Shown here: one piece after another, positions 55,353 to 56,453 of the stretch
How positions within the stretch are numbered: the first letter of the stretch is position 1
Layout: the number at the start of each line of letters is the position of its first letter
Sequence record: OR844765
Direction: 5' to 3' (one strand)
DNA length: 64,000 bases
From: Escherichia phage ECO111 5-P
Notes under the pieces: generated by a model
Told to the model about the DNA's origin: nothing
Database searches by the model: none
Seen by the model: the letters and a program-made list of their open reading frames with translations, nothing else
Program-made: the position numbers and the translations under genes

Positions 55353-56453
55353 ATGAAAGTTATGTTTATCCCATCTCGTGCAGTCCCATTTAATCCTGAC
55401 CGTGTACAAGGTGGTCTTGAAGCAGTACATTTAAATGTGTTGAAATATTTAGTTTCTATCGGTGCCGATATTGATTATATCGGTTTTGATAATGACACAT
55501 TTGGTGATTGGAAGGTTAATCATCATCCTGTTGGTCATCTGACTAAATTCAGTCTAGGTATGAGCTATACTATGGCTCGTAAGATTGTTGAACTAGCCAG
55601 CATTAATGAATACGATTTCGTTGTTACAATGGAACCGACCAAACTAACGGTCCAAGCAATTAAAGATGCTGGACTCTCTAAAGTTCATAAGAATTTTATG
55701 GCTACGCCGTTTGAACCGGTGTCTCGTGGTATTGTTCAAATTTGGGATCAGACTATCCAGATTCACAAGAACGGTGGGAAGAGCTATGCTCCTACTAAAG
55801 CATTCCGTGAATTTGAACGTAAATATTGTCATATGACTTCAGCTCTTACTGACAAAATTGATTATGACTACTGGCGTGAAAATCCATTATTTGAACCTGA
55901 TGACTACCCGGTTATTTGTTTGACTGAAAAACCGGAAGTTCTCCCGGCAACTGATTTGATTATTAGTGCTCAACGTTATGACACTAAGATGCGTCGCACT
56001 GATGTTGCTCTTGAAGCAATTAAAGCACTAGGCGAAAATGGTATTGGTTATTGTCCAAGCAAATGGGCACCACCAGCTAAATATCCTGTTATTATTGATG
56101 CTCCGCACAGTGAAATCATGGAACGTCTTAAAACAGCTAAAGCACTTATTAATACGTGTCCTGACACAGGTACGGTAGAGAATAGTTCTATTGAAGCCAT
56201 CTCTAAAGGTGTCCCTGTAATCCAGTTAGTTTTTAAGGATTATCCTCATGCGACATTCGAATACGACCCAGATACTGTGCGTGTAGAAATTGATTCCTCT
56301 ACTCCTAAGAAAGAAGTAGTTGCGCTTTACACAAAAGCTGTATTAGAATTCACTGACACATACGAAGCTCGAGTTAAACGTGCTGAAGCAGTATGGAAGA
56401 AGTATAACCGAGATGCAGTTGTTGCGATGTGGGATAAAATCTTCACAGCGTAA
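55353..56453 (+). CDS. hypothetical protein (366 aa); candidate glycosyl (arabinosyl) transferase
   Basis: Sits between topoisomerase/HNH and rIIA; C-terminal ENSSIEAISKGVPVI is weakly reminiscent of GT-B sugar-donor motifs. Confidence 0.5.
   Translation: MKVMFIPSRAVPFNPDRVQGGLEAVHLNVLKYLVSIGADIDYIGFDNDTFGDWKVNHHPVGHLTKFSLGMSYTMARKIVELASINEYDFVVTMEPTKLTVQAIKDAGLSKVHKNFMATPFEPVSRGIVQIWDQTIQIHKNGGKSYAPTKAFREFERKYCHMTSALTDKIDYDYWRENPLFEPDDYPVICLTEKPEVLPATDLIISAQRYDTKMRRTDVALEAIKALGENGIGYCPSKWAPPAKYPVIIDAPHSEIMERLKTAKALINTCPDTGTVENSSIEAISKGVPVIQLVFKDYPHATFEYDPDTVRVEIDSSTPKKEVVALYTKAVLEFTDTYEARVKRAEAVWKKYNRDAVVAMWDKIFTA

Follow-up and report, generated by a model that had tools for sequence, protein, structure and literature searches.

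The DNA analysed here is a stretch of 64,000 nucleotides (nt) from Escherichia phage ECO111 5-P (record OR844765), referred to below as the window, and it belongs to a Mosigvirus (RB69-like) genome that is approximately 96-97% identical to many deposited phages. Its forward strand carries, at 55353..56453, an open reading frame (ORF) of 366 codons with an ATG start, located between the topoisomerase and HNH endonuclease region and rIIA. An earlier reading made from the letters alone, the sequence-only reading, had marked an extra gene of 366 amino acids (aa) there as a candidate DNA sugar transferase, and its coordinates proved exact. From the ORF, its match to PHROG 8302, protein identities and selection analysis, we describe the gene as encoding a GT-B glycosyltransferase (GT) orthologous to RB69 ORF003c (gp3) and to the GT of phage HY126 (PDB 9IQZ and 9IR0), and we propose that the enzyme is the second, chain-extending DNA arabinosyltransferase of the phage.

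The 366-aa ORF is established as a real gene, because its product matches PHROG 8302 from end to end (positions 1-366 of 366, E 5e-221), because 163 phage records contain it with an nt identity of 90-98%, and because the ratio of nonsynonymous to synonymous substitution rates (dN/dS) is 0.04-0.05 (Nei-Gojobori method, two orthologues, from Bas47 and phage a20). Judged from these alignments, the gene is under strong purifying selection, and the same dN/dS values rule out both a frame that is open by chance and a gene in decay. A TAAGG element resembling a Shine-Dalgarno sequence was read at 55341..55345 on the same strand, with the ATG 7 nt downstream.

The orthology with RB69 is equally well established. 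RB69 ORF003c (NP_861693.1) has the same length, aligns without gaps at 97% identity (356/366), and is syntenic, being situated between '60plus39' and rIIA.1. This is the candidate arabinosyltransferase near rIIA of RB69 to which the sequence-only reading had referred; Thomas et al. (2018, PMC6024577) proposed it because HHpred matched it to GT-B/GT4 enzymes. In the PDB, a sequence search matched only the chains of 9IQZ and 9IR0, which are 98% identical to the window protein with all 366 residues aligned, and both single-sequence and profile HMMER searches gave these two entries as the sole matches. According to the Foldseek labels, 9IQZ is the 'phage HY126 glycosyltransferase' and 9IR0 is the same protein with uridine diphosphate (UDP) (released 2025-07-16). 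Relative to RB69 ORF003c and the HY126 GT, the window protein shows only ~8-11 substitutions, none of them in a family-invariant column. On this comparison the gene is already known, as a well-conserved orthologue of a described and crystallised phage enzyme. More distant members of the family are gp77 and gp76 of the Acinetobacter phage DLP3, which are 43% and 41% identical to the window protein, respectively, over the full length. The family is very small: when 1.84 billion representative proteins were searched exhaustively with its HMMER profile, only 12 were found, and those with names come from T4-like phages.

The structure was modelled by AlphaFold (AF2) from an alignment of the few available homologues. 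The model (pLDDT 90.6, pTM 0.87) contains two alpha/beta domains followed by C-terminal helices, and the full two-domain GT-B fold, and with it membership of the GT-B superfamily, is established. Structure prediction had been suggested by the sequence-only reading as a check for the GT-B fold, and the fold was indeed found; the same reading had described a GT-B-like C-terminal segment, which was correct as to the fold and understated as to its extent, since in the AlphaFold model and the Foldseek comparisons the whole protein is GT-B. The N-terminal Rossmann-like domain, on the acceptor side, comprises residues ~1-176 (55353..55880, +) as delimited by AF2 secondary structure, conservation and hhalign, and contains a family-invariant G20-G21 loop (nt 55410-55415, +) that hhalign places on the GG loop of a Pfam GT4 protein. 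The C-terminal Rossmann-like domain, predicted to bind the UDP-sugar, spans residues ~203-313 (55959..56291, +), as delimited by the AF2 model, conservation and hhalign, together with the orthologue crystallised with UDP. It includes R208 (55974-55976), R214 (55992-55994), the family-invariant E276 (56178-56180) and E281 (56193-56195), all on the + strand. Residues 319-365 (56307..56447, +) form C-terminal helices in the AF2 secondary structure; in the GT-B fold such helices usually pack back against the N-terminal domain.

The nearest folds found by Foldseek are those of retaining GT4-type enzymes (BshA, PimA, MshA, WaaG, tll1591 and sucrose-phosphate synthase), with an identity of only 10-15%. 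The T4 alpha-GT (GT72; PDB 1Y6F) is a more distant structural relative than these, the T4 beta-GT (GT63) is absent from the top 60 structural matches, and no sequence homology to T4 agt or bgt was found. The 366-aa protein has no Pfam family at E<=1 and no NCBIfam match. Since these two resources were silent and HMMER against the PDB found only 9IQZ and 9IR0, the GT4 link could be obtained only by structure comparison and profile-profile methods. One of the two weakest matches of the family profile search, a protein designated P0016, scores 31.9 bits with Pfam Glyco_transf_4 (cut-off 28.5) and 24.5 bits with Glycos_transf_1, below the cut-off of 26.4. The family profile aligns to P0016 in hhalign with a probability of 97.9% over 340 columns; the G20-G21 loop is kept, R208 corresponds to Arg and R214 to Lys, and E281 followed by GxPV is kept as the second Glu of the EX7E motif. 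Remote homology to a GT4 protein is therefore seen in these profiles, and strict GT4 membership, as judged by Pfam threshold and motif, appears only partial. The positions of R208, R214 and E281 are the nucleotide-binding ones in GT4 enzymes, where the Arg/Lys pair equivalent to R208 and R214 binds the donor diphosphate. Together with the 98% identical protein that carries UDP in 9IR0, the conservation of these three residues suggests that a nucleotide-sugar donor is bound in the C-terminal domain. The GT-B fold and the UDP-bound crystal bear out the candidacy of the protein as a sugar transferase. Retaining GT4-type enzymes differ from the proposed window enzyme in their acceptors, which are lipids, small molecules or glycans, whereas the acceptor proposed here is a sugar on DNA.

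The DNA chemistry of close relatives is established. In RB69 DNA, beta-D-arabinofuranosyl (Araf)-(1->3)-alpha-D-Araf is ether-linked to 5-hydroxycytosine (PMC13326640), which revises the arabinosyl-5-hydroxymethylcytosine (arabinosyl-hmC) of 2018, and arabinose is likewise carried by 5-hydroxycytosine, not hmC, in Mosigvirus DNA (PMC13326640, PMC13390438). The sequence-only reading had taken hmC to be the acceptor, which these data contradict: the window GT most likely acts on the first arabinose, and hmC-containing DNA, which that reading had named for a transfer assay, would thus be the wrong substrate. The ratio of mono- to di-arabinosylated cytosine is 1:4 in phage NP (PMC13390438), Bas46 and Bas47 are doubly arabinosylated (PMC12923530), and another study reports LC53 as mono- and Bas46 as di-arabinosylated (bioRxiv 10.64898/2025.12.19.695335).

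The window holds the whole arabinosyl-5-hydroxycytosine pathway cluster at 27944-34493, between the genes of DNA polymerase (25192-27903) and UvsX (34592-35764), and from there the GT gene described here is a further 21 kb downstream. Roles in the synthesis of the UDP-arabinofuranose donor (27944..30832) were assigned by analogy with RB69 gp55, gp52:53 and gp51 and with HY126 AfhE and AfhF (PMC13326640) to a putative SIS-domain arabinose-5-phosphate isomerase (27944-28579, +; Pfam SIS), a putative bifunctional nucleoside triphosphate (NTP) transferase/kinase (28761-30446, +; Pfam NTP_transferase and kinase-like matches) and a 133-aa putative phosphatase (30431-30832, +). They are followed by a Peptidase_U32-like protein (30890-32050), which is without a clear role in the published pathway, and by a thymidylate-synthase homologue of the RB69 gp48 type (32329..33045, +; Pfam Thymidylat_synt). 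RB69 gp48 makes 5-hydroxy-deoxycytidine monophosphate (5-hydroxy-dCMP), and its activity has been shown (PMC13326640). The next gene (33045..33944, +) encodes a 299-aa protein that is 99.3% identical to RB69 ORF046c/047c (tblastn), that is, the orthologue of gp46:47, the proposed first arabinosyltransferase, which would place alpha-Araf on 5-hydroxycytosine (PMC13326640). It has no Pfam match, and no sequence similarity is detectable between it and the 366-aa GT. A 182-aa ORF (33945-34493) completes the cluster. The label 'second' transferase, given by the sequence-only reading, is thereby apt, the first and unrelated one being that at 33045-33944. In the published account, too, RB69p003 is listed as 'beta-arabinosyltransferase 2', and gp46:47 of the main cluster is proposed as the first transferase (PMC13326640).

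From these data, we consider it highly probable that the window GT is a UDP-Araf-dependent GT-B enzyme of the DNA hypermodification pathway that adds the second arabinose to arabinosyl-5-hydroxycytosine in DNA. The phage would replace cytosine with 5-hydroxycytosine, supplied as 5-hydroxy-dCMP by the thymidylate-synthase homologue, and the enzymes encoded at 27.9-30.8 kb would make UDP-D-arabinofuranose. The first transferase would then put alpha-D-Araf on the 5-hydroxyl, and the window GT, as a soluble, GT4-like GT-B enzyme, would move a second D-Araf from UDP-Araf to O3 of the first arabinose in DNA. The product would be beta-D-Araf-(1->3)-alpha-D-Araf-5-hydroxy-deoxycytidine, the main modified base of Mosigvirus DNA, and with its sugar chain lengthened the DNA is presumably better protected against nucleases and glycosylases. 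A comparable step is carried out by the second-sugar glucosyltransferase of T2 and T6, which also extends a sugar already present on a DNA base, forming gentiobiosyl-hmC (for the T6 chemistry, PMC13390438); the likeness drawn here is a functional one, and sugar and base differ, being glucose and hmC in T2 and T6 and arabinose and 5-hydroxycytosine in the window phage.

The activity of family members on DNA is established for the two paralogues of DLP3. Acting together, gp76 and gp77 use UDP-Araf to add Araf where 5-hydroxycytosine in DNA already bears arabinose, attaching a third Araf to RB69 DNA in vitro, and they show no activity on DNA that contains 5-hydroxycytosine only (PMC13326640). This observation bears on the possibility that the window GT is the primary or only base-directed arabinosyltransferase, attaching the first arabinose to the modified cytosine, as in the 2018 model of RB69 ORF003c, in which the base was hmC. 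We regard such a role as distinctly unlikely. Besides the preference of the DLP3 paralogues for arabinosylated DNA and the identity of the base, which is 5-hydroxycytosine and not hmC, the distribution of the two transferases speaks against it. By tblastn, the 299-aa first GT occurs in 348 phage records, one copy in each, from phages of Escherichia, Klebsiella, Serratia, Enterobacter, Proteus, Yersinia, Shewanella and Acinetobacter. The window-GT family is confined to 211 records with 267 matching places. Mosigvirus-type phages of Escherichia and Shigella have a single copy, each Acinetobacter T4-like record among the matches listed has two matching places, and no phage of Serratia, Shewanella or Klebsiella was matched. 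LC53 and Thanatos, for which a single arabinose is reported, are without the family, yet they have the 299-aa GT encoded in the cluster. Family copy numbers of 0, 1 and 2 coincide with reported mono-, di- and tri-arabinosyl DNA, so that the number of copies tracks the number of extra sugars.

The same distribution, together with gene order, makes it highly improbable that the window GT acts on something other than DNA, for instance a glycan of the host envelope or a protein of the phage or its host, with its link to DNA modification being a coincidence. Such a role would suit the nearest structural relatives, which act on lipids, small molecules and glycans, and it would suit the position of the Mosigvirus gene, 21 kb from the cluster in a plastic early-gene region. 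Nevertheless, no taxon has the family without also showing the arabinosyl-5-hydroxycytosine cluster: the taxa of its 211 records all appear among the 348 first-GT records, as compared by organism tallies and listed records and not record by record. Moreover, the paralogues of Acinetobacter phages are encoded inside the cluster beside the first GT gene, those of DLP3, gp76 and gp77, modify DNA in vitro, and the ~12 family members among 1.84 billion representative proteins are, where named, from T4-like phages.

The arrangement of the paralogues differs between the two phage groups. In DLP3, two of them lie within the main cluster, both are needed together in vitro and the DNA is tri-arabinosylated, whereas Mosigvirus has one family copy, 21 kb from its cluster, and stops at two sugars. 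It is conceivable, and we put it forward only tentatively, that the copy number of the family sets the arabinose chain length in a modular manner, and that the Mosigvirus extender is a free-standing cassette in the hyperplastic interval from gene 39 to rIIA, a landing site of homing endonucleases, from which phages could exchange it without the core pathway. As the active site of the window GT departs from the EX7E motif, having lost the first Glu and gained an invariant E276, its catalytic mechanism might differ from that of a textbook retaining GT4 enzyme.

The assignment of the second step has to be weighed against several points. It rests on comparative genomics, on the biochemistry of paralogues and on proposals by other authors, so that for the orthologue in the window specifically the second-step role is what we infer; no direct assay of a window-GT orthologue was found in the literature searched, which did not cover the primary HY126 report. 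The first Glu of the EX7E motif is not kept: once a one-residue insertion is allowed for, T272 takes its place in the alignment, and E276 is an invariant Glu that the family has of its own, so that catalytic details may differ from those of textbook GT4 enzymes. For the donor, the anomeric configuration is assumed. Furthermore, DLP3 gp76 alone and gp77 alone are inactive (PMC13326640), and by analogy other family members may need a partner. Taken further, the last point would make the window GT indispensable as a partner or scaffold, either for the first GT or for some other protein, required for arabinosylation in general and performing no discrete second step by itself. In favour of such a role, gp76 and gp77 are active only together, and gp76 departs from the family at the conserved RGIVQ segment, where it has RTLVS, which hints that some members are less catalytic. 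Mosigvirus, though, has a single family member, in which the GG loop, R208, R214 and E281 are kept, and the crystallised orthologue, which is 98% identical, has UDP bound. The first GT was considered as a partner chain in the 9IQZ crystal and rejected: its sequence matches no PDB chain, so that nothing points to a co-crystallised complex. On balance, we consider a purely accessory role unlikely.

If the window GT is the enzyme of the second step, its stereochemistry may also be considered. Its nearest folds are those of retaining enzymes, and, to our knowledge, natural D-Araf donors are 1,2-cis (beta). With a beta donor, the beta-linked product would mean that the window GT retains the anomeric configuration, in agreement with a GT4-like enzyme; an inverting enzyme would in turn be needed for the alpha linkage of the first sugar, in keeping with the lack of relationship between the two GTs.

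With arabinosylated 5-hydroxycytosine in their DNA, RB69-like phages escape restriction enzymes, some CRISPR systems and DNA glycosylases, and the length of the sugar chain appears to alter which defences work against them. Knowing the chain-extending gene helps to engineer or predict phage host range. An 'Aat' deletion is reported to make Bas46 sensitive to a defence system (cited in PMC13216743). What is known of the chain extender is already in the literature and the PDB, so that the window adds only one orthologue and a consistent comparative-genomic picture.

Upstream of the GT gene, the large subunit of topoisomerase II (52694-54514, 606 aa) is a single fusion that covers the parts of T4 gp39 and gp60, labelled '60plus39' in RB69, and therefore neither the gene-60 split nor the translational bypass exists in the window. 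For T4, the sequence-only reading had assumed only gene 60 and small ORFs between gene 39 and rIIA; this holds, the T4 record listing rIIA.1, 60, 60.1, mobA and 39 in the interval and nothing else. Between gene 39 and the GT gene, the window has an HNH/NUMOD3 homing endonuclease in two ORFs (54499-54879, 126 aa, and 54879-55310, 143 aa). The split is due to a 1-nt deletion in an A run near 54850, which has five A in the window and six in phage a20, where the endonuclease is one 265-aa ORF; it could reflect a pseudogene, a sequencing error or a slippage-prone tract. In the window this frameshifted endonuclease parts the GT gene from gene 39, whereas RB69 and Bas47 are without it, and the element matches only 31 phage records compared with the 163 that have the GT gene. 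In T4, the equivalent interval contains mobA, a defective HNH gene. A hairpin with a T-rich tail resembling a terminator was found by consensus scan between the endonuclease and GT genes (55308..55327, +), with a folding energy of -11.8 kcal/mol that is not significant (z = -1.05), and promoter and terminator consensus scans around the GT gene gave scores no better than those of shuffled sequence. Downstream of the GT gene follow rIIA.1 (56546-56746), rIIA (56759-58972) and rIIB (58982-59917). The 92-nt spacer between the GT gene and rIIA.1 contains, at 56470-56520, a perfect 11-bp inverted repeat, GGCACTATTAC ... GTAATAGTGCC, with a 29-nt loop. Its RNA folds with -26.1 kcal/mol (z = -3.86), and none of 200 shuffled sequences folds as well; it is not a classic terminator, because no T-run comes after it.

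Several minor observations concern the GT gene in other records. Its allele is ~94% identical at the nt level in most Mosigvirus records (dS 0.32 against phage a20) and ~97% identical in a smaller Mosigvirus group that includes SSE1 and Bas47, yet the adjoining homing endonuclease is 99.3% identical to that of a20. These sequence identities suggest a mosaic or recombination boundary near the GT gene. Shigella phage JK45 (MK962757.1, 601-2204), whose record is classed as Tequatrovirus despite carrying the Mosigvirus-type GT gene, contains an intact 1101-bp copy followed by a 411-bp ORF that duplicates the 3' part of the gene, either as a partial tandem duplication or as an assembly artefact. 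The two-piece match in this record was considered as a natural GT knockout and rejected, as the complete gene accompanies the partial duplicate. GenBank names for the gene are inconsistent and partly outdated: it is a 'hypothetical protein' in most records and a 'putative hmC-arabinosyltransferase' in Bas46 and Bas47, and the Acinetobacter paralogues are often annotated as 'putative DNA alpha-glucosyltransferase'.

Upstream of the gene 39 region, two adjacent ORFs at 49827-50312 (161 aa) and 50322-50741 (139 aa) encode clear paralogues, which share KLVEV..S, GFISD.WVEDG.KLYNIVF.G.F.VV and similar C-terminal ends; by their sequences, the pair is a tandem gene duplication.
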